Assembly (NCBI GenBank): GCA_951406725.2
Contig: OX597822.1
Coordinates: forward strand, 71,796,001 to 71,860,000
Source of the DNA: Octopus vulgaris
Lineage: Eukaryota
Reading direction: 5' to 3'
DNA: 64,000 bases
The translations under genes and the position numbers were made by a program. Every line of letters starts with the position of its first letter. The first letter of the stretch is position 1. The notes under the pieces are model-generated. The model saw only the letters and a program-made list of their open reading frames with translations, searched no databases and was not told the DNA's origin. This document shows positions 8,098 to 57,809 of the stretch, piece by piece.

Positions 8098-9060
8098 TTT
8101 TTGTCAATTCTTCAGCTAAAACAGTCTCCAGTTCTTGTAGTGATGATGGTGGAGAATATCGAATCCTTACTTGTTTTTCGAAAAGGCACCATAAATGTTC
8201 AATAATATTGAGATCTGGGGACTGTGGTGGCCAGATAAGATGTTGAACTTCACTAGAATGTTCCTCGTGCCATTCAGTAACAACTTTAGCTGTGTGAATT
8301 GGTGCATTATCATGCTGAAAGGTTGCGTTGGAAGAAAGCAGTGTGGGTTAAATGCTTCTTTTGTTGTCTCCACACGTATACTCGGCTGATGGTCGGAAAT
8401 AAGGTAAAGGATGACTCGTCCGAGAAAATAACATTCTTCCACTGCTCTACGGCCCAATTCTGTAGGTTTTTATTCCACTTTAAATGCTTTACAACATTTG
8501 CTTTTGGAAGTAGTGGTTTTCTGATTGCAGCCCTCCTGTGAAATCCAGCTTTGTGCAGCTCTCGGCGAACAGTTTTTGTGGAAACTGGGTTCTCGGGGTG
8601 GTCATTAAGCTCTGCAGTAATTTTGGGAGCTGTACTTTCGTGATCCTTTCTTCCAATTCGCGTAAGAGTTCGACGGTCCCTGTCTGAAAGTTTCGTTTTT
8701 TTTCGGAGTTTTGTTTCGACGGAGAGGTTTTTCCCTCCTTCTCAAAGGCTATCATTACTTTTGAGACCGTACTTCTTGATACACCGAACATTTCAACTGT
8801 TTTCGTTACGCTAGGGCCTGCCATACGAGCACCAACAATGTGACCTCTTTGAAAGTCCGATAGATCTGTCATTTTAATGAATTTTAATTACCTTTTTCTG
8901 ATTATATCTGAAAAGAAACAGCAATTTTATCAAAACATATTAAGCAACACTAATAATGAATCAAAAACATAAAAATAAACAAGCTTTTAACGATTTTATA
9001 GATATTTCAAAATTATGATGCTATGATGCTAGGTGTTTTCATTATTTTGTCCAACCCCTG
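8098..9060 (-). mobile_element. Truncated, frameshifted Tc1-family (DD34E) transposon
   Basis: One TIR (TA-caggggttggacaaaataatgaaaacacc on minus strand); paired-like HTH MTDLSDFQRGHIVGARMAG..VSRSTVSKV; motifs DESSFTLFP, FQHDNAPIHTA, WPPQSPDLNIIE; other end lost. Confidence 0.9.
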
Positions 9061-9485: not shown

Positions 9486-10712
9486 TTGGGTTGGCAACTA
9501 AGTTCCCGCCGTTTTTTTTAAATTTTGGAATCTATTGCGTTTTTAAATTTTGGAATCTATTTTTTTTTCTAGTTAACTTTAGTTAATTTTTGTTCACTTT
9601 CAGATCATTAAAATGGAATGTCAAGTTAAGAAAAACGAGCATTTTCGACACCTCCTTCTTTTTGCTTTTAATCAAGGTTCTAAAGCCGCAAAAGCTGCTC
9701 GCGACATTTGTGCTGTGTATGGAGACGGTGCTATAGCTGAAAGAACCGCTCGTGATTGGTATGCCAAGTTCAAAAATGAAAATTTTGACCTCAAAGACAC
9801 ACCTCGTTCTGGCTGTCCAGTTGGGTTCGATGAAGAGCGATTAAACCAACTTTTGCACGAAAATTCTCGTCAAACGACAAGGGAACTGGCAGAAAAAAAC
9901 GGAATGATCCCACACTGTTATAGAGAAGCATGTTCTATCGATGGGAAAGGTTCAGAAATATTGAGCATGGGCTCCGCATGCTTTAAGTGGCAACAACAAA
10001 AATCAACGAGCCGCTGGTTTGCTTGCTCGTCACCGCTCAACTCATGGATACAAGCAACGATTTCTTTACCGAATCGTTACTGGCGACGAAAAATGGTGCC
10101 TGTACATCAATATAAAGCAGCGTAAGGAATGGCTTAGCCTCGGTAAACAAGCGACACGGCGCGTGAAACAAGATCTTCATCTGCATAAAACGATGTTGTG
10201 CGTATGGTGGGACTGGGAAGGGATTATCCATTAAGATATCCATTGCTTGAACGGAACCAAACGGTCAACAGATGGAACGACTCAACACGGCTATTCAAGA
10301 GAAAAGATCTAATCGGCAGCATGGAGCTCTTCTGCTGCACGACAGCACCCGCCCTCATATCGTCAATATGACCAAGGAAGCCATTCAAACGCAAGGCTGG
10401 GAAGTGCTGTCACACCCGCTGTACTCTCCTGATTTGGCACCAACGGATTTCCACCTTTTTCGATCTCTTTCAAATGCTGTGCGTGGAGTTTCGTTCAATA
10501 CTGGTGCAGGATTGAGAGGTTGGTTGGATCAACTTTTCGAGTCAAAATCAGGTGATTTTTACAATCGAGGTATTGAAAATCTTGTTGAACGTTGGGAAGA
10601 AGTTGTAAACAACAAGGGTGAATACATTATCTATTAATTAGTTGTTATCTTATATTAAAGCTTTTAAAACTTTTAGATTTAAAAAACGGCGGTATCTTAG
10701 TTGCCAACCCAA
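9486..10712 (+). mobile_element. Near full-length mariner transposon (mellifera-subfamily-like TIR), frameshifted transposase
   Basis: TIRs ttgggttggcaactaag / cttagttgccaacccaa with TA TSD on both sides; ORF pieces 9613-10637 with HFRHLLLFAF, IVTGDEKW, LLHDSTRPH, YSPDLAPTDFHLF. Confidence 0.96.
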
Positions 10713-21401: not shown

Positions 21402-23075
21402 GTTTATATATTTGTTGTGCAAGATTTTTTATGTGAAGTCGTGTGTTGAAACAGATATTGTTATATTTCGGAATGGTCATTTTGCCAGTTTAGCCAATAA
21501 AAACACACGCACTATATATTTGGTGTTACTTTGCTTCAGTGTTGTGTATTTTTTACATTAATCTTAATCTTATTTCGGCCAGAGTTCTTTCGTCACACTC
21601 CTGTGACCGCATCAGTGGTCCTTTGTTTTTTCTTTCTTATTTGTGTCTCTCCTTACTAACCGTCAGCCATTTTGTATTTCTATTGTATGTCTTCATTTGC
21701 GCATGCTTATATCTCTATGTGCGTCTATGTTTATTTAGTGTGTGTGTGTGAGGGAAGCCTGTAATATTTGTATCTTCTGTTTATATACGTTCATGTAATT
21801 TGTTTTTGTTGTTGTTGTTTTTGTTTATTCTTATTTTGTTCATGTGTTTACATCCACTTATTATTATCATTACATATGCTATGTATGTATGTATGTATGT
21901 ATGTATGTATGTATGTATAACAACAATACTAGTAATAATAATAATAAATTGAAAAAATATATATATAAAAAAAATATAGTTATTTATTTCTATTTGTTTA
22001 TTTGTCTGTGTATTTATTATGTTTTCGGGATCCTCTACCGTCATATGTTGTGGTGTGTGCTTGTGTTCCATTCTAGTTTTCTATTCAGGCTAGGTTTATT
22101 TTCTATTATATGTGTAGCTTCTGTAATTTGTCTGATTGTTGCATCTGTTCTATGTGTGGACAATATTTTAATTTCTATGTTGTTGATAGATCCCCCGTGT
22201 TCCTGTTCGGCGTGTTGGTACAGAATCGATGAGCTTTTACCTTCCTTGAGTTGTCTCCATATTTCATTTACCCGCTCTTCTATGCTTCTTGCCGTTTCCC
22301 CTACGTATGTCGTTGTCTTGTTACTGCATCGTCCCTCTATACATCTTATACTATAGACTACATTTCTGGCTTTACAGTTTGTTTGTGAGCTAAATCTACA
22401 TACAGTACAGTACTTATCCGTACAGGGGCTTCTACTAAAAGGATAGGTTCTACCAATTATAGATTTGATAGGGTTGCCTGGCTTTTCAACAACCTTAATC
22501 CTTAGCTTAAGTTTGTCTAGGGTCCTTCTAAAGCGGTACGCCAGTTCAACTCCAGGGGTGGTGTCAACGAACATGACACTCTGGTATTTATAGCTATCAT
22601 ACCAAGAGTTGGCCTTCCCTATTTTCATTTTTGTCTTTTCTATAGTGTTCCATGACTTGTTCCTATAGAGTGGGCAAATCCCATTCCTATCATTACATAA
22701 TATATTATCAAATTTCTTCATGGCTCCTTTGTATACTCTGATCCTTTCTTTATAAACAGAAGATACAAATATTACAGGCATCCCCCCACACACACACACT
22801 AAATAAACATAGACGCACATAGAGATATAAGCATGCGCAAATGAAGACATACAATAGAAATACAAAATGGCTGACGATTAGTAAGGAGAGACACAAATAA
22901 GAAAGAAGAAAACAAAGGACCACTGATGCGGTCACAGGAGTGTGACGAAAGAACTCTGGCCGAAATAAGATTAAGATTAATGTAAAAAATAAATAACACT
23001 GAAGCAAAGTAACACCAAATATATAGTGCGTGTGTTTTTATTGGCTAAACTGGCAAAATGACCATTCCGAAATAT

Positions 23076-23158: not shown

Positions 23159-24042
23159 ATAAATGACTGGGAATCGAACTGGTGAAAGTGTTAGATAATA
23201 AGGCATTAAGACAATATGACTTTCTCCAGCCACTATAAAGTTTGATTAAAGTTTTATATAAAGCGTTCACACATATTTTTGTCAAATAGTCACTTGAATA
23301 ATTAATATTGTAGAAAAATTGTTATGAAAATTGGCCCGGAGAAATGAAAGCGTAAAGGCAATATTGTGATTCGTTCAAGTAGAACGTGTTTTGCATTAAG
23401 ATAAACCAAACTGGAGTAATTCAATATTGTACAAAATAACTTTAAGTTAATCATGTTAACGTTATAATTTAGAGCCATTTATTCGCTAGCAAATAATAAA
23501 TAGCACTGGAGTAGGTGAGAAACGTAGAAATAGACATGGTCAAAATACTTCTCATTCAGTTTAATGTGATGTCTGGTTTAAGGTGGCTGAAAGAGAAACA
23601 ATTCTTTTTAGTGTTGTTACCTGAGAAAGCGAAGCTGGGAAGTTCAGCTCCTTGACAGATGTTAAGCGAATGAGTGAAGTAAAATAATTCAATTGAGTTT
23701 CGCCTTATAGCAACAACATGGCGATCAGAATAGTTATCTAAGATAGGGTAAGATACAGCATGTGATAACCGAGAAACACAAAGGCGTTCATGGCTATGCG
23801 AATGTCTCAGATTGGAAGCGAAGTCTCCCAATATATTTCTGAGTTATGCTAAGCTGTATTTAAAATAGATACTATTTATTGAAAGGAAAAACGCAAATAT
23901 GAAAATTAGATTATCTACTACAGAACCAATCTAATTTATGACTATTACTCTCTCGCACGCACACACATACACACGCGCATGCACACACACACACACAAAC
24001 ATATCTTAGCGATGAAAGCAATATTTCTACCGAATGGCAGTG

Positions 24043-35643: not shown

Positions 35644-36413
35644 GCGTGTCTGTATTTGTGTAAGTGGGTGAATGAAAGAGAGTGAAAGAGAGCAGTTTTG
35701 TGTACTCAATTTGTAATTGTATACTGTTCGTTTGTGTGTTTGCATAATAAAAAGGTAATGGTGGCATAAGAAAAAAAAATGATTTTAAAAATGTGTTCCG
35801 TAGTTTTGTTAACTTTGAAATGTATACAGGTTTTATGTCGAGAGATTGTAGGATCGCACTAGGACTTGGCTCCGTCGTTTAACTGGAGGAGACAAATGGT
35901 GTAGAATTAAAACTTGTAATTATCTACGGAATAGTCTGTAGTCGAATAATAATTTGGGATGTAAAAAGTTGTAAAAGATTGTTTCCGAACTTTTATCTAT
36001 CTCCTCATAATGATGGTGATGATGATGATGAAGGCGTTTTCTTTTAAAGAAGTGCAATGTCATTTTGTTTTAAATGGTGGTGGGCAAGGCATTTTAGTTG
36101 ACCGAATCGATCTGTATGATACTGATAGTTAATATGATCGAACCAGCTGGGATGTAAGGCGAAGTCGAATGGAACTGAAGTACGTAAAGCATCTGACTTA
36201 ATATGCATTGAAAGGCGAATCAATCTCTCTTCTACTGTGTGCACAATGTCCACCTACATCAACAGCACCACCATCACCACCAACATCATCACCACCGCCA
36301 CCATCACCACTACGGCCAGCTTCACTAACAACAGCAGCAGCCCAGCAATACCATATCGATTTGTTGTTGTTTATTTTAGTATGGCATCTCTTCTGAAAAA
36401 AAACTTGTATCGT

Positions 36414-39008
36414 TTACTTTGTTTTCTTTGTGTTCTTTTTGTGTTTTTCTCCTCCGCCATATTCGATCTGAATCGATAAGTTTGAAGGGTTTTGATTCTG
36501 TTTATTACCATCAATGTAATTTATGGCTATATTTTCCAGCAAAGTAATTTTGTTACAGCATTCGTAGATGAATCGACCAACCATTTTACGCCGTTTCCTC
36601 CCATTGATTTTCATGTTGATATAGTCATTACGGTTCTGGCTTCTGAATGACTTCAAATACTCGTAATGATTGGAATCATCTGATAACTGACCATCACTAA
36701 GCCTTGTATATTTCAAAAGATTTATATTACCGTCTTTTATTTCTGTGGCATAGGCCCGGTGCATGGGGTGAACATAGATACCATCTTCATATGTATTCGA
36801 TTTGTTTTGAACAATTTTCAATATTTCTGAAGCTCTATTAAATGCATCCTGTGACATAATCATTTTCGCCTCGCGTTTAGTCTTTCCTCTGATCGACCTT
36901 AGAATGTCAATATGTCTTGGACGATTATTTTCTGTCATTGTAACTGGAATTTGCTTTCGTTCACTCGATACAATGTGCTCTGGTTTCTTCTCTCGTCTGT
37001 CAGCATCTTTGGTAGTCACATTCGTTTCTATTTCTAGAGAATCGAGTTTCGTAGTTTGATTTGGTTTCGCTGAAAATGCGTCGATGTTTTCGTCTGAAGA
37101 AACTTCAGCTCCAATATATGTTGGTGTTTCCATCGTATTTTTATCTGCCATAGAAAAGGTTTTTATATCATGACTTTGTATATCAGTTAATTTCTTTGTT
37201 GGAACGTGGTTTTCTACAGCTTCAAATTCTGTTACTTTCACTTTATTTTCTTCCTGGACTTTTGAGAGTTCTGTGGCAATTTTGGGACTTCCCATTGGTT
37301 CTTTAGAACTTTCTTCAGCGGGTTCATTCACAATCGTTTCTATAAGTTTTTCCCCTTTTACTGTCATATCAACAACATTATTGTCTTCATTTTCCAACAA
37401 TAACATTTCTTCCTTTTGAACTACAACCGTTTGGTTTTCTACCAAAGGTGCAACAGCTACCATGTTTTCAAGCAAACCACTATCTTCCCTGGACGGAAGA
37501 CATTTCTCGGGAAACGATGTTTCCGTTTCATTTGGAATATTCATCTTAAAATTTTCAGATTGTTCGATAGAAGTCATCATCGGTTTTGATGAAGTAGAAA
37601 TTCCAAATTCTTCGACCTGTACGTCAACTTGTTCAAATAAAACGGTAGAATCATTATCTTTGGGTGTCCCAACAATATTACCATCGGTTTCCACGTTTCC
37701 TTTCTCGACAATCTCAATGTGTTCTGATACTGTCATATTGTTTACGGTTGCGTTTTGCACATCTAATTCTTCAGTTATTTCCACAGTTGTTCTCTCTTCT
37801 AATATTTTGTCTCCTCCAATTGTTTCAGTTTTTAATGTAAATTGATTAAAAGAAACGACTTCAGGTTTCTCTTCAAGGATTTCCTGTGAGCTATCTGCAT
37901 CTCCAACAGAAAATACGGACGGTTTTTCAATTATTTCGGAATTAACATTTTCAACATTTCCTATTTCTTCAAAACAAGATAATGCAGATGTTGAAATATT
38001 TTTCAGATTCTCTTCGAGTTCTTCAACTTTTTCACATGTAGGTTCTGTAGAAAACTCTGCTACTTTCTGAGACGAAACATGGATATAATCAGGAGCAACT
38101 TCTGTTTCGGTGTATGAACCACATACACCTTCGACGCCAGTGCGGAAATTCAAATCACCTTCTGATAAGTTAGGTTCTGTAGAAAACTCTGCTACTTTCT
38201 GAGTCGAAACTTGAATATAATCAGGAGCAACTTCTGTTTCGGTGTATGAACCACATACACCTTCGATACCAGTGCGGAAATTCAAATCACCTTCTGATAA
38301 GTTAGGTTCTGTAGAAAACTCTGCTACTTTCTGAGTCGAAACTTGGATATAATCAGGAGCAACTTCTGTTTCGGTGTATGAACCACATACACCTTCGACG
38401 CCAGTGCGGAAATTCAAATCACCTTCTGATAAGTTAGTAAGATTTCCTGTGATATCTTCCTGTGATTCCTCAGAATTAAGCACGTGTGTATCAGTTACTA
38501 CAGGAAAAATATTTTCAGATAACTCTACTGAACTTTGTTTCTGATCTATTAAAATGGCATCCTGAATGTCCTCACCAGATTCTGTGTCACATTTCGCCGA
38601 CGATGTATTCATAAGTTTTACTTCTTCGATATTTTCTGGTTTAAAACTAACCCCATCACTGTTGCTTCCATCAGCTAATTCGCTGAAAGTGTTGTTAACT
38701 ACAGGAACATAAATTTGCGAATCCATCGCTTCGTTCAAAGCCGATTGTAAGGAATTAGATTCAACATTAGACAGGGCATTTGGATATGAAGTGTCTGTTG
38801 TATTACTTTCTGTATACAGTGTGTCCTGCAGTTGGCAGGCTTCAGTGGAAATATTTCCATTGATTTCCATTGTCGTACTTGGTTGTCCAATCACGGTTGA
38901 TTTAACAGAAATATCCTGGTTGTACCCTTCTAGATTTGTCATAGACTTCTCATCATTTACCTCGGTCTCAGTTTTAACATTGTTCACAAATTCGTTATCC
39001 ATATCCAT
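36414..39008 (-). CDS. Intronless 864-aa protein: long Glu/Asp/Ser/Thr-rich N-terminal region with 3x44-aa repeats, basic segment, C-terminal degenerate NUMOD4-like/HNH (HNH_3-type) module
   Basis: 2.6-kb uninterrupted non-microsatellite ORF in stop-rich DNA; aaaATGG start context; AATAAA on minus strand at 36370-36375; C-terminus GIYVHPMHRAYA..KDGNI..MVGRFIYECCN..INYIDGNKQNQNPSNL resembles VHRxVxExF..(D/N)HxDGNKxNNxxxNL. Confidence 0.8.
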   Translation of the reverse strand: MDMDNEFVNNVKTETEVNDEKSMTNLEGYNQDISVKSTVIGQPSTTMEINGNISTEACQLQDTLYTESNTTDTSYPNALSNVESNSLQSALNEAMDSQIYVPVVNNTFSELADGSNSDGVSFKPENIEEVKLMNTSSAKCDTESGEDIQDAILIDQKQSSVELSENIFPVVTDTHVLNSEESQEDITGNLTNLSEGDLNFRTGVEGVCGSYTETEVAPDYIQVSTQKVAEFSTEPNLSEGDLNFRTGIEGVCGSYTETEVAPDYIQVSTQKVAEFSTEPNLSEGDLNFRTGVEGVCGSYTETEVAPDYIHVSSQKVAEFSTEPTCEKVEELEENLKNISTSALSCFEEIGNVENVNSEIIEKPSVFSVGDADSSQEILEEKPEVVSFNQFTLKTETIGGDKILEERTTVEITEELDVQNATVNNMTVSEHIEIVEKGNVETDGNIVGTPKDNDSTVLFEQVDVQVEEFGISTSSKPMMTSIEQSENFKMNIPNETETSFPEKCLPSREDSGLLENMVAVAPLVENQTVVVQKEEMLLLENEDNNVVDMTVKGEKLIETIVNEPAEESSKEPMGSPKIATELSKVQEENKVKVTEFEAVENHVPTKKLTDIQSHDIKTFSMADKNTMETPTYIGAEVSSDENIDAFSAKPNQTTKLDSLEIETNVTTKDADRREKKPEHIVSSERKQIPVTMTENNRPRHIDILRSIRGKTKREAKMIMSQDAFNRASEILKIVQNKSNTYEDGIYVHPMHRAYATEIKDGNINLLKYTRLSDGQLSDDSNHYEYLKSFRSQNRNDYINMKINGRKRRKMVGRFIYECCNKITLLENIAINYIDGNKQNQNPSNLSIQIEYGGGEKHKKNTKKTK
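38041..38436 (-). repeat. Three near-identical 132-bp (44-aa) in-frame tandem repeats within the 864-aa ORF
   Basis: ggttctgtagaaaactctg recurs at 38041, 38173 and 38305; unit NLSEGDLNFRTGVEGVCGSYTETEVAPDYIQVSTQKVAEFSTEP. Confidence 0.97.
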
Positions 39009-39479
39009 TTTATGTTATTTATAAAATTTAATTGATGTTATTATTATTATTATTATCGTTGTTTCATAAATCAATGTCTTTTTCTTTTTTTTTTTTTGTT
39101 TTCTAAATGTCTTCACACAAAAAGTATTTTATAAATAATATTCGATATAAAAAGGATAATTTCTTAATGACACAGAGCTCTTCTGCGCAAGTAGATTTAA
39201 GAATCTTGCCAAGGGACTTGATGCAATACATACAAAAGGACACTAAATTAAATCAATAATAATGATTTGTCGAAAGCAATCTATATAAATATAACTGTTT
39301 CTGCAGTGGCCACAGGGTGTCTAGAGAAACGAAACGGTGTTAATTGATAAAGTCAAAAAGTTTTATGTTCAATAGAGACAGAAAAAATGATACAAAAAAA
39401 AAATTAAGTTTCGATTATGAGAGTGAAATAATTTTGGTGAGAAAAATATTCAAAAATATTCATAACAGCAACACCAACA

Positions 39480-39525
<46 letters not shown>

Positions 39526-41361
39526 TTAATAATCAATTAATAATAACAGTAGTAATGATAATAAATTTTACAGAAATACCGATAAATTCTCAAGGCGTTG
39601 TCACGAAAGTCTGTGTACAAGATTCCAAAATTTAAAATGGTAGTTTTGTTATTTATGTTTTTTTAAAATTTTTTGTTCTTGTTTTTTTTTTCGTTCTCTT
39701 TGTTTGGGTTTTTTTGATTTTTTTGTTGTTGTTGTTTTTTTCTTCAAAATTTATCCTTTTATATTTCTCTGTCGTAGATATCGTTGTTTAGTTTAATGCT
39801 GAAAGTTAAACTTTTCCTTCGTGAGATCTTTTTAAAATCTTCCTTTAAATTGTAAATGGGCTGCAACAAGCTGTAACGTTTTTATCCACAATATTTTGCT
39901 TTCTTACTTCTTTTTTTTTTTTTTGGATATCACAAAATATTTAAAGAAAGAACGAATTAAGAAAAAAAATTCAACAAAAAATATTTTTGTTGTTGGTGTT
40001 AGTGGTAGTGATATCAACTAATTAATCCGCACGCACGCATTTATGTATGAACGTCTGTAAACCACGCATGGGTGAATGTAGTCGGCGATCAAGTTAGACT
40101 CTGTCAGTTTCAGCGGAGACGCGGCAGTCAGAAAAGTGCATTTGTATGGCTAAGAACCACGTACACTCCACTTAGGTTTCTTATCACCGACTGACTCACT
40201 CACACCATTGCTGCCTCTCTTAGTTATATAAATATATGAGTGTGTGCAAAGATCTACTATCACCACCACCACTACTTCACGTATGTAATTTGATTCTAAA
40301 TGCCTAGTTATGAAGAGGGAGGCGGGATATGATTGCATAGATTTCAACCCGATGGCTGCCTCTGTTTCTATATCTTGATAAGAAAAAGGCACACACCATT
40401 AAAACAAGTAGTGCGACGACTCTACGATACGGTTTCGATTTCTGGTTAGAACCCACTTCGTTTCAAAACAGGTTAAATATTCTTGAGAAATAAACGAAAC
40501 TTGAAATTTCCCTATCTTCTACCTTTTCCCTTTTACCTGTTTAAATCATTGAATGCGGCCATGCTGCAGCACCGCCTTGAAGAGTTTAGTCGAACGAATC
40601 GACTCTAGTACTTTTATATATTTATTTGACTCTTTGTTGATATTTTTTTTCAATCTTGTACTTATTCTATCGGTTTCTTTTTGCCGAGCTACTAAGTTAT
40701 GGGAAGGTAAACAAACTAACACCGGTTGTTTAACGGTGGTGGGAGGCAAACACAGACAGACACACACACACATAGACACATACACAACATACATACATAC
40801 ATACATACATACATACATACATACATACATACATACATTCACAACATACATACATACGTACATGCAAGCATGCATGCACACATATACATACATACACATA
40901 TATACACACACATATAAACATACATACATATATATGTATATATATGTGTGTGTGTGTGTGTGTGGAGGCGCAATGGCCCAGTGGTTAGGGCAGCGGACTC
41001 GCGGTTTCGATTCCCAGACCGGGCGTTGTGTTTGTTTATTGAGCGAAAACACCTAAAAGCTCCACGAGGCTCCGGCAGGGGCTGGTGGTGACCCTTGTTG
41101 TACTCTTTCGCCACAACTTTCTCTCACTCTCTCTTTCTGTTTCTTGAGTAACGCTGCGATGGACTGGCGTCCCGTCCAGCTGGGGGGAACACATACGCCA
41201 CAGAAACTGAGAAACCGGGCCCATGAGCCTGGTTAGGCTTGAAAAGGGCGAAAAAACAAATACATATATATAGTTGAAATTTATAGAAAAACAAAAGACG
41301 AAGACGGGTGTATGAACAACAAGCAGGTGTATTAGCTTGATGCTCGGAAAAATGAAAACAT

Positions 41362-55061: not shown

Positions 55062-57809
55062 CTAGATCCTAAATGGACCAACGAGATACGATTTTGAAGG
55101 AGCAAATAAGCCTTTCAGGAAATAAATCAAAGCTTCATGAACGGAAATATATTGTTTTAGTGAAGTAACCATAAACATTCTATTGGAGCGGAGGAAGCCA
55201 AGCAAGTGTGATATATTCATTTCAATGTCATGCTTTAGACAATATTTCATAATATAAGACATTATTAGGACACCGGTACGACCAACTCCATCATGACACA
55301 GGACAGCGATAGGAGCTTGGACGGGATCTTTAGTGCGCATAAGATTTTGTACAGAGTCAATCTCTTCCAAAATGCTGACAAAAATTGATAAATCACACGG
55401 ACAGTCATCTCCTGACCATTGAGTGAAATAAAGATTACTTATTAGCTGTTGCTCACCAGAAGCATTGGTGATTGTCAGAACATCTAAAAAGTACTCGGGA
55501 GTTCTCCTATACGTATGGAAAGTAACTGTAAACGGTCCACTCTGAAATTTTTGATCAAGATTCCATTCTTGAGGCCAGTACTGACAACACAAAAGTTTAT
55601 CCTCGTCATCCCTGGCATTCAGCATAATTATTATAGAAACCTTTTGTTCCCAAATCATTTGCCAAAAATCTTCGACAGTATTTTTTAGCGGCGCTTGAGC
55701 TGCAATGAAGCTCAATTTATGCAGACCGCGTCTCCATTTTATACTAGACGCATTTATATAACCAAACATATTGTCAGGTCTTCCAGACAGTTGTACACGG
55801 TTTTCGTCATAAGGTACAATAGATTGATAGCGATTTCGAGAAAGGTTATCTACATGACAACCAACAGAACAAGGCATTTGACTTTTTACGCCAGTTGAGC
55901 GAAACTCGGTGAAAACCTCGCCCTCATTTAATTTACGTTGCAGATTTTCATATTTATCTCTACTTCGAATGTCTTTAAATGCACCTGAAGCCACCATAAT
56001 AAATGGCTTCTTGGAATGCTTATGTACAGCTCCTTTAGAACTTTCTAGGGCCAACAACTCCGATTTAGAGAGGGCTTGATAAGTTGGCTCAGTTACCGCA
56101 GGTTCCAGATATGTGTACTTCCTACTAGGCAACATGGTTTGAGTTTCAGAAACTTTCGACTCCTTACTTTTCTCCAATTTAGCGGGTGAAACGGGCTCAG
56201 TGCTTTTATCTCGTACTTGAATGTCTTGAACTCTCTTCAAAATTTGCCCTACGGTAATAGGTTTCGCAGGATCTATGTCCGTATCCTTCGACTTGGTTTT
56301 TGGAAATGGATATTTGGGTGGATATCTATTAGGAATGCCACTTTCTCTCAATGGTTGCGAATCGGAGAAATGTTTTTCCGTACTTTGTTTAGATTTAATA
56401 TCCGCTTGTGTTTCACTTTCAGCCTTTTCTATTGCATCTAGATACTGCAGAATATTTTTTAAAGTTTGAGAAAGTAAATGCATCGGACTGGTTTCGGTAT
56501 ACTTCTGGAATCGTTCATTAATCATAGATATGTAAAAAGATTGCGTTTGACTACTTTTGTTAAGTTTCTTCGCTTCATATTTTATATCCTTGGAACCAGT
56601 CAGGAATAATTCTTCATCAAGACGTATCTCAGCAGCGCTGACGCTCGTTAAGGGTTTCGACGGACTAGTAATTGCTTCTGTTGCACCTAGAGCAGTTTGT
56701 TCTGGACGTGACGGTTGAGCGAGGAGGTATTGCGCAGTTTCAGTAGCTTCGTAAAGAGATTTGGGAGATGATCGAACGTTATCAGGAATAGAAGTCAGCG
56801 ATTGCTGGTAACGAAGAACAGATCTCAGAGTCTCCGACTGAGAACTTGACAGCAGCAATGAGTAAGATTCGTAGCCGTCAGGCTTGGCAGGTTCCTTTGT
56901 CGATCTGTCGCAGAACTCTGGATTATCTTGATAAAAATGCATCAAAAGGAAAGCCATTTGGAAGAAATATTTTGCTCTCTTCTTATCAGCCAGTTCTAGT
57001 TGTATGGAGCGAGATAACTGTTGGATAATTATACTAGACTTTTGAGAACGTGTGACTGCGGCAATATCTGACCACTTGAGGAGAAAAGCATCAGGGGACC
57101 TTAAATATTTCACCATGATACCGTTGTAGGACGTTATTAGATGCACCGCCTCACGACTCTCGGAAAGTATGGCAGGGTGACACTCTAGGCCGTAGTACGT
57201 CGCAGACTCGAATTCAATTATATAAAAAACCATACTAGTTGTAGAAGATATATGAAGGGTTTGGTAATTCTGAAAAGCTTTTTCTTGAGCAGCTGTAGCA
57301 ATTTTCTCGTCCCTCCGTATGCTAGCAGGAAAAAGAAGGTGGCGGCCCACTGTCGTAACTGTATGCGTTTTGGGATCGTATGGACCTAGAATCACTCGAA
57401 GGTAAAACGAAGCCAGTTTGATAGCCCTTTCAAGTACACAATCATACTGACTATATAAATAATCAACATGAAGTTGCCTGAAATACTGATACAGGGCAGC
57501 CTCATCCTTAATGTTATAAGCACGCGATATATAGTACATCACTCCAAAATAAAAACAATGTTGACTACAATGTTTGTCGAGTTGGGTCCCCAAGGGCTTG
57601 TTCAAATCAATCCATTCAACTCTCACGTCATTAGTGACGTGACGGAAACCAAAATATCTTGCGTCTGTTATTCCAAGTTGGTGGATAGCAAAAGCCATGC
57701 ACTCATGACCGACAGTATGAGGGAATACCATAGTTTCAAAACAAACTCTATCGAACGCGAACACAATAACCTTCATTCCATCTTTAGTATCTATATCAAC
57801 CGATTTCAT
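55062..57809 (-). CDS. Intronless FERM-domain non-receptor tyrosine phosphatase-like protein (PTPN14/PTPN21/Pez family), catalytically divergent
   Basis: N-terminal FERM features (YFGFRH, WIDLNKPLGTQL, FYFGVMYY, YYGLE, WSDIAAV); PPKY motif; PTP motifs RNRYQSIVPYDENRVQL, YINAS, IAAQAPLKNTVEDFWQMIWEQ, QYWP, VLCHDGVGRTG; gccacaATG start context; AATAAA on minus strand at 54964-54969. Confidence 0.93.
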   Translation of the reverse strand: MKSVDIDTKDGMKVIVFAFDRVCFETMVFPHTVGHECMAFAIHQLGITDARYFGFRHVTNDVRVEWIDLNKPLGTQLDKHCSQHCFYFGVMYYISRAYNIKDEAALYQYFRQLHVDYLYSQYDCVLERAIKLASFYLRVILGPYDPKTHTVTTVGRHLLFPASIRRDEKIATAAQEKAFQNYQTLHISSTTSMVFYIIEFESATYYGLECHPAILSESREAVHLITSYNGIMVKYLRSPDAFLLKWSDIAAVTRSQKSSIIIQQLSRSIQLELADKKRAKYFFQMAFLLMHFYQDNPEFCDRSTKEPAKPDGYESYSLLLSSSQSETLRSVLRYQQSLTSIPDNVRSSPKSLYEATETAQYLLAQPSRPEQTALGATEAITSPSKPLTSVSAAEIRLDEELFLTGSKDIKYEAKKLNKSSQTQSFYISMINERFQKYTETSPMHLLSQTLKNILQYLDAIEKAESETQADIKSKQSTEKHFSDSQPLRESGIPNRYPPKYPFPKTKSKDTDIDPAKPITVGQILKRVQDIQVRDKSTEPVSPAKLEKSKESKVSETQTMLPSRKYTYLEPAVTEPTYQALSKSELLALESSKGAVHKHSKKPFIMVASGAFKDIRSRDKYENLQRKLNEGEVFTEFRSTGVKSQMPCSVGCHVDNLSRNRYQSIVPYDENRVQLSGRPDNMFGYINASSIKWRRGLHKLSFIAAQAPLKNTVEDFWQMIWEQKVSIIIMLNARDDEDKLLCCQYWPQEWNLDQKFQSGPFTVTFHTYRRTPEYFLDVLTITNASGEQQLISNLYFTQWSGDDCPCDLSIFVSILEEIDSVQNLMRTKDPVQAPIAVLCHDGVGRTGVLIMSYIMKYCLKHDIEMNISHLLGFLRSNRMFMVTSLKQYISVHEALIYFLKGLFAPSKSYLVGPFRI

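Follow-up and report, generated by a model that had tools for sequence, protein, structure and literature searches.

We analyzed a 64,000-nucleotide stretch of Octopus vulgaris DNA (GenBank assembly GCA_951406725.2, contig OX597822.1, positions 71,796,001 to 71,860,000; referred to below as the window), whose minus strand carries a stop-free, single-exon open reading frame (ORF) of 864 amino acids (aa) at positions 36414 to 39008, with the encoded protein termed P0001. An earlier note, made from the sequence alone, had proposed that this gene is a domesticated viral or Polinton-type HNH nuclease, catalytically dead and fused to a long acidic arm. The gene is apparently an octopod-restricted, domesticated dead nuclease that is undescribed, and its features are as follows.

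40189 to 40194, minus strand: Initiator-like TCAGTC, with the A at 40192 as the likely transcription start (contig ends and motif match).
39009 to 40192, minus strand: likely unspliced 5' untranslated region (UTR) of 1184 nt with six short upstream ATG frames of 4 to 42 aa (contig pieces, no RNA joint).
36414 to 39008, minus strand: single-exon ORF of 864 aa (ORF calling, identity to an NCBI/UniRef sequence, orthologues P0003, P0007 and, from Argonauta, P0004).
36969 to 39008, minus strand: acidic arm, residues 1 to 680, likely disordered (charge composition, no Pfam match).
38039 to 38437, minus strand: three tandem 132-bp (44-aa) units within the arm (Tandem Repeats Finder).
36804 to 36878, minus strand: predicted helix, residues 711 to 735, N-terminal to the HNH domain (AlphaFold), conserved among octopods and with its role unexplained.
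36465 to 36785, minus strand: I-HmuI-like NUMOD4/HNH_3 domain, residues 742 to 848 (profile and structure matches).
36582 to 36626, minus strand: basic beta-hairpin, residues 795 to 809, including GRKRRK; likely a DNA-contact sheet (AlphaFold and I-HmuI alignment).
36453 to 36521, minus strand: degenerate active site with N830, Y831 and Q839, no Asn at the position of I-HmuI N96, and the final helix not predicted.
36370 to 36375, minus strand: AATAAA, read through by transcripts (motif scan and contigs).
35650 to 36413, minus strand: likely 3' UTR, given at its minimum length (contigs reaching 35650).

The ORF proved intact and intronless, as had been stated; the longest stop-free run in 500 base shuffles was at most 165 aa, and no other ORF between positions 24000 and 55000 exceeds 168 aa. 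The start context, previously judged plausible, reads aaaATGG, the quoted HNH-like motif was found in the C-terminal part of the protein, and an identical 864-aa sequence is present in NCBI/UniRef.

Residues 742 to 848 belong to the His-Me finger superfamily and, within it, to the I-HmuI/HNH_3 fold group. When the C-terminal 181 aa were compared with PHROG, phrog_959 (HNH endonuclease) was matched with an E value of 2.1e-6; an octopod-only profile aligned with eight phage HNHs over 62 columns at an hhalign probability of 96%; and a five-row profile, one row of which is an active HNH, had I-HmuI (1u3e) as its sole match among PDB sequences (E 8.9e-5). A hidden Markov model (HMM) of 72 phage rows from IMG/VR, 8 of which had been retrieved by resemblance to the query so that the test is partly non-independent, scored the octopus domain at 30.2 bits and the Argonauta domain at 26.3 bits, with 12.9 bits for the best of 1000 shuffles. 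The finger scaffold of the I-HmuI group, IDGNK.N..PSNL, is retained. Pfam NUMOD4 (PF07463) was not matched, an NCBIfam search returned nothing, and a single-sequence PDB search returned nothing meaningful.

The AlphaFold model computed from a 79-row alignment, in which 73 rows are His-bearing HNHs that bias it toward the HNH fold, reached, in the predicted local distance difference test (pLDDT), a value of 74 overall and of 81 to 93 over residues 780 to 849. Using VIA-align, I-HmuI (1u3e) ranked top with Z 10.2 and a root mean square deviation of 3.4 Å over 94 aligned residues, followed by I-PpoI (Z 4.2), Smad4 MH1 (3.3) and NFIC (2.6), with 8 chains at Z of at least 2 among 48161. In BFVD, Foldseek matched 65 entries at E ≤ 0.001; of the top 50, almost every named one is an HNH/NUMOD4 protein from a phage or, in some cases, a giant virus. 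An ESM Atlas model of the protein, independent of our custom alignment, matched NUMOD4/HNH clusters at a template modeling score of about 0.5, with ESM Atlas feature scores below 0.9 taken as leads only. Altogether, the HNH_3/NUMOD4-type fold anticipated in the earlier note was borne out by the PHROG, hhalign and VIA-align comparisons. A homodimer prediction made without the custom alignment scored 0.01, which is evidence neither way.

The catalytic residues of I-HmuI are D74, H75 and N96, according to the accessible part of PMC12724721. In our alignment, D74, H75 and N83 of I-HmuI correspond to N830, Y831 (codon at 36516 to 36518) and Q839, respectively, and the His of the VHR motif to G811, with N838 and N843 as further aligned residues, while the N96 position falls in a GGG stretch of P0001 containing no Asn. 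Tyr in place of the catalytic His and Gly in place of the VHR His were seen in 3/3 octopod rows, and the N83 position is occupied by Gln or His in the octopod proteins. Asn at the D74 position is also common among the phage rows; the presence of His in 73/73 of the latter is by construction, as these rows were selected with a His-containing pattern. Both P0001 and its Octopus-like orthologue P0003 lack the N96-position Asn and its helix, though the remaining core is invariant, and the AlphaFold model ends in strand and coil with no final finger helix predicted. The Argonauta protein ends in N-x-x-H-A, resembling the phage metal-binding helix displaced by a few residues; this tail supports a phage-type ancestry and shows that the helix was lost unevenly. 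Because the metal-binding helix is absent from both Octopus-like proteins despite the invariant core, the site is better read as dead. The earlier claim that catalytic residues are lost (Tyr for the catalytic His, Gly for the VHR His, Gln for one Asn, no final EN) was confirmed. By alignment, then, the active site is dead, a conclusion we regard as well supported, and, judged from the missing catalytic His and metal ligand, the gene is not a member of the active HNH homing endonucleases.

The earlier note had read two basic patches as resembling nuclear localization signals (NLSs). One of them, GRKRRK (residues 803 to 808), is unchanged in 3/3 octopod rows and lies within a beta-strand, predicted with good confidence, whose counterpart in the alignment is the I-HmuI hairpin preceding VHR; in the model, the strands of this hairpin, residues 795 to 809 (E96-102 and E105-110), have pLDDT values of about 86 to 92. 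Because of this location, GRKRRK is more likely part of a DNA-facing sheet than merely an NLS, although it could be both. The other patch, the KHKKNTKKTK tail, is not kept in Argonauta.

Full-length orthologues of the gene were found in the incirrate octopod Argonauta hians (GAB1603394.1, P0004; the closest orthologue with a species name), with the same layout and 41% identity overall, and on Logan contigs of about 3.55 kb (P0003 and P0007), with 80% identity overall. Identity of P0001 to P0003 and Argonauta, respectively, was 76% and 35% in the arm (aligned residues 1 to 700 for Argonauta), 88% and 67% (26/39) in the helix region at residues 701 to 740, 94% and 68% in the domain, and 51/51 and 40/51 (78%) in the core at residues 795 to 845; the domain carries a charge of +14 to +15 in all three orthologues. 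Alignment of four sequencing runs to the ORF revealed 16 differences, evenly split between synonymous and non-synonymous changes (8 each; pN/pS 0.27); none introduces a stop or a frameshift, and 1 of the 16 lies inside the domain (residue 782). Allelic variation, species differences and possible reference errors are pooled in this count, and coverage of the tandem repeat is patchy. Together with the orthologue in a distant relative, the pN/pS value, from only these 16 sites, points to purifying selection. In 20 of 24 listed runs, which bear five organism labels, half or more of the words from the stretch are present. Taken together, these comparisons strongly indicate that selection has focused on the surface of the domain rather than on the active site. 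No orthologue from squid, cuttlefish or other molluscs was present among 17, 182 or 7999 scored candidates, and no mollusc orthologue among the 4 matches at E ≤ 0.001 in 1.84 billion representatives, each being weak evidence of absence. If the absence outside octopods is real, the decapodiform-octopodiform split, dated to 242 ± 38 Mya in the accessible part of 10.1101/2021.11.08.467834, sets a loose upper bound on the capture.

We then considered whether the gene still belongs to a mobile element. A protein search of the 2.8-Gb genome gave 1 match among 10 candidates, namely the gene itself, and a DNA search with positions 35650 to 40250 recovered its own locus plus 126 matches to simple repeats, none longer than 111 bp, with 40 of the 299 candidates scored. 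The many dispersed copies that would have spoken against domestication were thus not seen in either search; strongly diverged paralogues could escape, given that the genome search with PF13392 described below missed the 864-aa gene itself. No ORF for a Polinton pPolB, integrase, capsid or ATPase was found in the window or 10 kb on either side, and no pair resembling terminal inverted repeats (TIRs) occurs among the 25 longest of 2908 inverted-repeat pairs in the window, in agreement with the earlier note. Eleven of these 25 pairs flank the gene, their arms being microsatellites or a dispersed short repeat. A genome search with PF03175 (Polinton polB) gave 0 matches from 1 candidate, and its search control was likewise without a match. 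Apart from the gene itself, the window and its 10-kb flanks contain only decayed remnants, of mariner/Tc1 and GIY-YIG (Penelope-like) type and, as we take from their translations, of LINE and pogo-like type, together with a FERM and protein-tyrosine-phosphatase (PTP) gene. Positions 8489 to 8872, 9613 to 10637 and 22041 to 22850 hold decayed pieces of Tc1-like and mariner (Mos1 helix-turn-helix, HTH) transposases and a GIY-YIG fragment, which are ordinary repeats. Judged by the lack of neighboring element genes and TIRs, the gene is not a Polinton cargo gene. Altogether, the single copy, the full-length orthologue in another octopod family, the better conservation of the domain compared with the arm and the likely transcription described below uphold the proposed domestication, and we consider it well supported that this is a host gene.

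Concerning its origin, a phmmer search of the same 1.84 billion representatives returned, outside octopods, only P0005 and P0006 at E ≤ 0.001. P0006 is an active HNH, whereas P0005 belongs to a family (P0005 and P0008 to P0018) of unnamed metagenomic proteins of about 600 aa in which three His-less HNH_3 units stand in tandem, with linkers rich in Thr. Members of this family lie on metagenomic contigs of 2 to 33 kb and possibly form an array of dead-nuclease DNA-binding modules like that of transcription activator-like effectors; none of their loci was found in IMG/VR, JGI contigs, GTDB or GenBank phages. The P0005 family was examined as sister or donor of the octopod gene and set aside: its top rank (E 6.7e-10) is the sum of three units, P0006 scores higher per domain (35.5 bits versus at most 29.7 for the P0005 units), and neither these scores nor the tree settle the matter. 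A grouping of octopod sequences with P0005 had an SH-like approximate likelihood ratio support of 88 in a quick, unfinished tree (92 rows, 114 columns; no identified Polinton or giant-virus rows), where it was flagged as a long-branch join. The best single-domain relatives of the octopod domain are ordinary His-bearing, phage-type HNHs. The gene probably came from a virus or another kind of mobile DNA, with a phage, a giant virus, a protist element or a host element as candidate donors. The label "Polinton-type" was not supported: in addition to these relatives and to the lack of Polinton genes nearby, the animal Polinton HNH described in 10.1101/2023.08.22.554363 is PacI-like and not I-HmuI-like.

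The genome search with PF13392 gave 3 matches among 28 candidates, the sole one over the cut-off being an exon on contig C1. This HNH_3 exon (G000:C1:153290939-153291019, equal to L002:1363-1692 on the minus strand) lies 14 kb upstream of a MYND exon (C1:153276796-153276855) on the same strand, and we take the combination to be the architecture of ZMYND19. As a parent of the octopod gene, this ZMYND19-type gene was rejected, since the octopod core scored 0.1 bit against its exon and 9.3 to 24.4 bits against 72/72 phage rows. The available parts of two ZMYND19 papers (PMC13676621 and PMC12663577) do not mention the HNH domain, and no paper pairing both terms was found.

The arm and the C-terminal part of the protein are opposite in charge. 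Residues 1 to 680 contain 20% Asp plus Glu, with a net charge of -92 and a pI of 4.1, compared to +15 and 9.8 for the C-terminal 184 aa; the net charge of the arm is -92 in P0001, -67 in P0003 and -88 in Argonauta. The arm is likely disordered, and no family was matched in a Pfam search with it. A scan of the arm for SQ/TQ, SUMO-interacting (SIM), PxVxL, PCNA-interacting (PIP) and LxCxE motifs identified nothing common to all three orthologues. Tandem Repeats Finder detected 3.0 copies of a 132-bp unit with 97% matches in the arm, and P0003/P0007 have a single copy; by this comparison, the array is a recent expansion.

Transcription was assessed from sequencing runs. Three small runs from three studies (X1, X7 and X9), whose RNA status is a guess as none is recorded as RNA, cover the locus from about 40190 (X9 from 40072) down to 35650, the edge of the examined stretch, and in each of them single contigs join the ORF to 35650. 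Depth at 40267 to 40437 is zero in these runs and 37 in the large run X16, whose contig reaches 40579. The 5' contig end of X1 falls at 40192, the A of TCAGTC, and that of X7 at 40190, where the loose end is presumably Illumina adapter. The Initiator consensus is TCAKTY; with 97 instances on the window's minus strand, a match within 2 nt of a given point would arise by chance with a probability of about 0.8%. The contigs in the 5' UTR break only at simple repeats, and there is no RNA joint within the transcribed unit. An intron guessed from the sequence (39907 to 39321) was ruled out, as the contigs cross both of its ends with no RNA joint. The poly(A) signal mentioned in the earlier note does exist, the AATAAA at 36370 to 36375 being the only AATAAA or ATTAAA within 1.9 kb downstream of the ORF, but RNA-like contigs pass it by at least 720 nt, so that it can mark no more than one among several 3' ends. 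The gene is thus likely transcribed from its own Initiator into a one-exon transcript with a 1184-nt 5' UTR, six short upstream frames and a 3' UTR extending at least 720 nt past AATAAA. The 5' UTR is long, A/T-rich and apparently unspliced, and its six upstream ATG frames suggest translational control. Four runs of the same species, also guessed to be RNA, had almost none of the words of the stretch, a result not readable as tissue specificity.

With regard to function, we favor, with a probability of about 0.5, that the protein is a regulator that binds DNA but does not cut it and has a disordered acidic arm. Capture of the gene would predate the split between Octopus-like octopods and argonauts; the basic hairpin with GRKRRK and the recognition sheet would lie in the DNA major groove, as modeled for the N-terminal domain of I-HmuI-like enzymes in the accessible part of PMC12724721; and the acidic arm would serve for activation or for contact with chromatin and may temper the basic domain. 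DNA binding is suggested by the charge of the domain and by the position and conservation of the hairpin. Smad MH1, which the available portion of PMC5714182 describes as an altered endonuclease that no longer catalyzes but still binds DNA, is counted as a precedent. A bolder version, in which a phage-type, I-HmuI-like homing endonuclease became, independently in octopods, a sequence-specific transcription factor carrying an acidic activation arm of its own, as a recent, lineage-restricted replay of the origin of the Smad/NFI DNA-binding domain with viral ancestry still readable, is offered tentatively, and we judge it somewhat more likely to be wrong than right.

Several points weigh against the DNA-binding regulator. 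The Pfam HNH_3 (PF13392) match reached 13.6 bits (E 0.052) compared to a cut-off of 24.8; Foldseek against PDB found I-HmuI at E 2.3e-3; an AlphaFold model from 5 rows only had a pLDDT of 43 and was excluded from the fold searches; and the 79-row model carries the bias stated above, as the transcript evidence carries the guessed status of its runs. The target specificity of I-HmuI-like enzymes is presumed to be largely C-terminal, as given in the accessible part of PMC12724721, and the I-HmuI-type C-terminal region is absent from the octopus protein, so that binding could be weak or non-specific. Moreover, ZMYND19, a second animal HNH_3 protein, is studied as a lysosomal mTORC1 regulator in the portions available to us, so that a captured HNH domain need not bind DNA.

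Among the alternatives, a non-specific nucleic-acid or chromatin binder, with a histone-chaperone-like acidic arm or with RNA as its ligand, would account for the conservation of a large arm in charge more than in sequence and for the missing C-terminal specificity module; nonetheless, the near-invariant hairpin surface (51/51 and 40/51) exceeds the needs of a plain charge patch, and we consider this reading improbable. That the fold persists as a module for protein interaction, without any part in nucleic-acid binding or processing, is less probable again: the octopod-conserved helix at residues 711 to 735, which has no phage counterpart, and the mTORC1 work on the human namesake of the HNH_3 and MYND gene, as far as the available text goes, would fit such a module, but the domain is charged +14 to +15 in the three orthologues, and its basic residues occupy the sheet which, in the solved relative, is turned toward DNA. 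A role as a defense decoy against a related virus or element, whose DNA sites or proteins it would occupy, would suit a viral-type domain retained as a single host gene, and His-less HNH repeats exist also in the metagenomic P0005 family; given that no related active element was found in the genome by searches of limited sensitivity and that the domain evolves slowly, unlike usual arms-race genes, we hold this to be quite unlikely.

In a further reading, the protein would be a still-active nickase with the conserved Tyr as its nucleophile. His-Me fingers of the PacI group do use Tyr (PMC5714182), Y831 is invariant in 3/3 octopod rows, and Argonauta keeps its N-x-x-H-A tail like the phage metal-binding helix. 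However, the PacI Tyr sits in an extended omega loop and not at the His position (PMC5714182), and both Octopus-like proteins are without the metal-binding Asn and helix while the remaining core is invariant, making a Tyr nickase very unlikely. The least probable reading, largely refuted, is a relic or cargo gene of a Polinton or endogenous virus; although the gene is intronless, viral in its domain and placed in a repeat-rich region, it is single copy with no element genes in the window or the 10-kb flanks, has an intact full-length orthologue in another family and possesses its own Initiator.

Compared to known systems, the DNA-binding regulator favored here resembles I-HmuI and the NUMOD4/HNH_3 homing endonucleases of phages and large DNA viruses (1u3e; phrog_959; PF13392) in its N-terminal sheet, beta-beta-alpha finger and IDGNK.N..PSNL scaffold. 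It differs from I-HmuI in the VHR His (Gly), H75 (Tyr), N83 (Gln or His) and the lost N96 helix (partly kept in Argonauta), in lacking the C-terminal HTH/NUMOD1, and in having a longer N-terminal insert, an extra helix and a 680-aa acidic arm as a single-copy animal gene. Smad MH1 and NFI are likewise animal His-Me fingers without catalytic residues, with weak fold matches (Z 3.3 and 2.6); unlike Smad MH1, the octopus domain is I-HmuI-type, found here only in octopods, without an MH2, and only a putative DNA binder. Smad MH1 itself is of a kind similar to the zinc-binding I-PpoI enzymes and occurs across the animals. By analogy, the protein probably works like Smad MH1.

The ZMYND19-type gene (G000:C1:153.28-153.29 Mb) is also an animal host gene with an HNH_3 domain, in the same genome, but is multi-exon and keeps the His in its finger. 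The P0005 family shares with the octopod proteins the His-less finger, a [GA]-R-[LF]-I-Y-E helix, an N-terminal HP motif and low-complexity linkers, and differs in its three units and in the Thr-rich nature of its linkers. The pPolB2 HNH of nematode and oomycete Polintons is another HNH domain in animal mobile DNA; according to the available part of 10.1101/2023.08.22.554363, it is PacI-like and binds zinc, forms an insertion within the polymerase and is missing from mollusc pPolB2.

The earlier note knew of no described animal family with this architecture. This stands for the exact architecture, which was not found in our literature searches, but dead His-Me fingers are known in animals, namely Smad MH1 and, as a second case, the nuclease-like domain of ENPP (available portion of PMC5714182), and the same genome has the HNH_3 gene with MYND. 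No description of the octopod gene came up in a literature search that left subscription journals mostly outside its scope and excluded supplements, where gene tables could list it, and the accessible parts of PMC9068888, PMC13676621 and PMC12663577 do not mention it. The view that animal DNA binders such as Smad MH1 descend from disarmed homing endonucleases otherwise rests on very old events visible at the level of fold only, whereas the octopod step appears recent, with a phage-type motif that can be aligned and two octopod families that differ in the degree of metal-binding-helix loss. The gene thereby provides a manageable case for testing how a nuclease becomes a regulator, and it is a candidate for a regulatory gene that is specific to octopods and foreign in origin. 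Should the protein bind nothing specific, the gene would still be a horizontally acquired orphan that is undescribed and of moderate interest.

Some further observations were made in the genome. A dense cluster of about 30 MYND-finger matches on both strands within about 150 kb (G000:C19:43.53-43.69 Mb) represents a local expansion. A marginal NUMOD4 match of 23.8 bits with one internal stop (G000:C20:17779804-17779914, L118) may be due to chance or a relic. Within the window, a second long intronless ORF of 915 aa (55062 to 57809, minus strand) lies 16 kb upstream of the HNH gene on the same strand and encodes FERM and PTP domains, presumably PTPN14/21-like. Its catalytic loop reads CHDGVGRTG and its WPD loop WSG, suggesting that it may be a weak or dead phosphatase. 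A FERM-PTP paralogue with a 1140-aa open frame is located at G000:C25:14007873-14008763 (36%), and both are possibly retrocopies.

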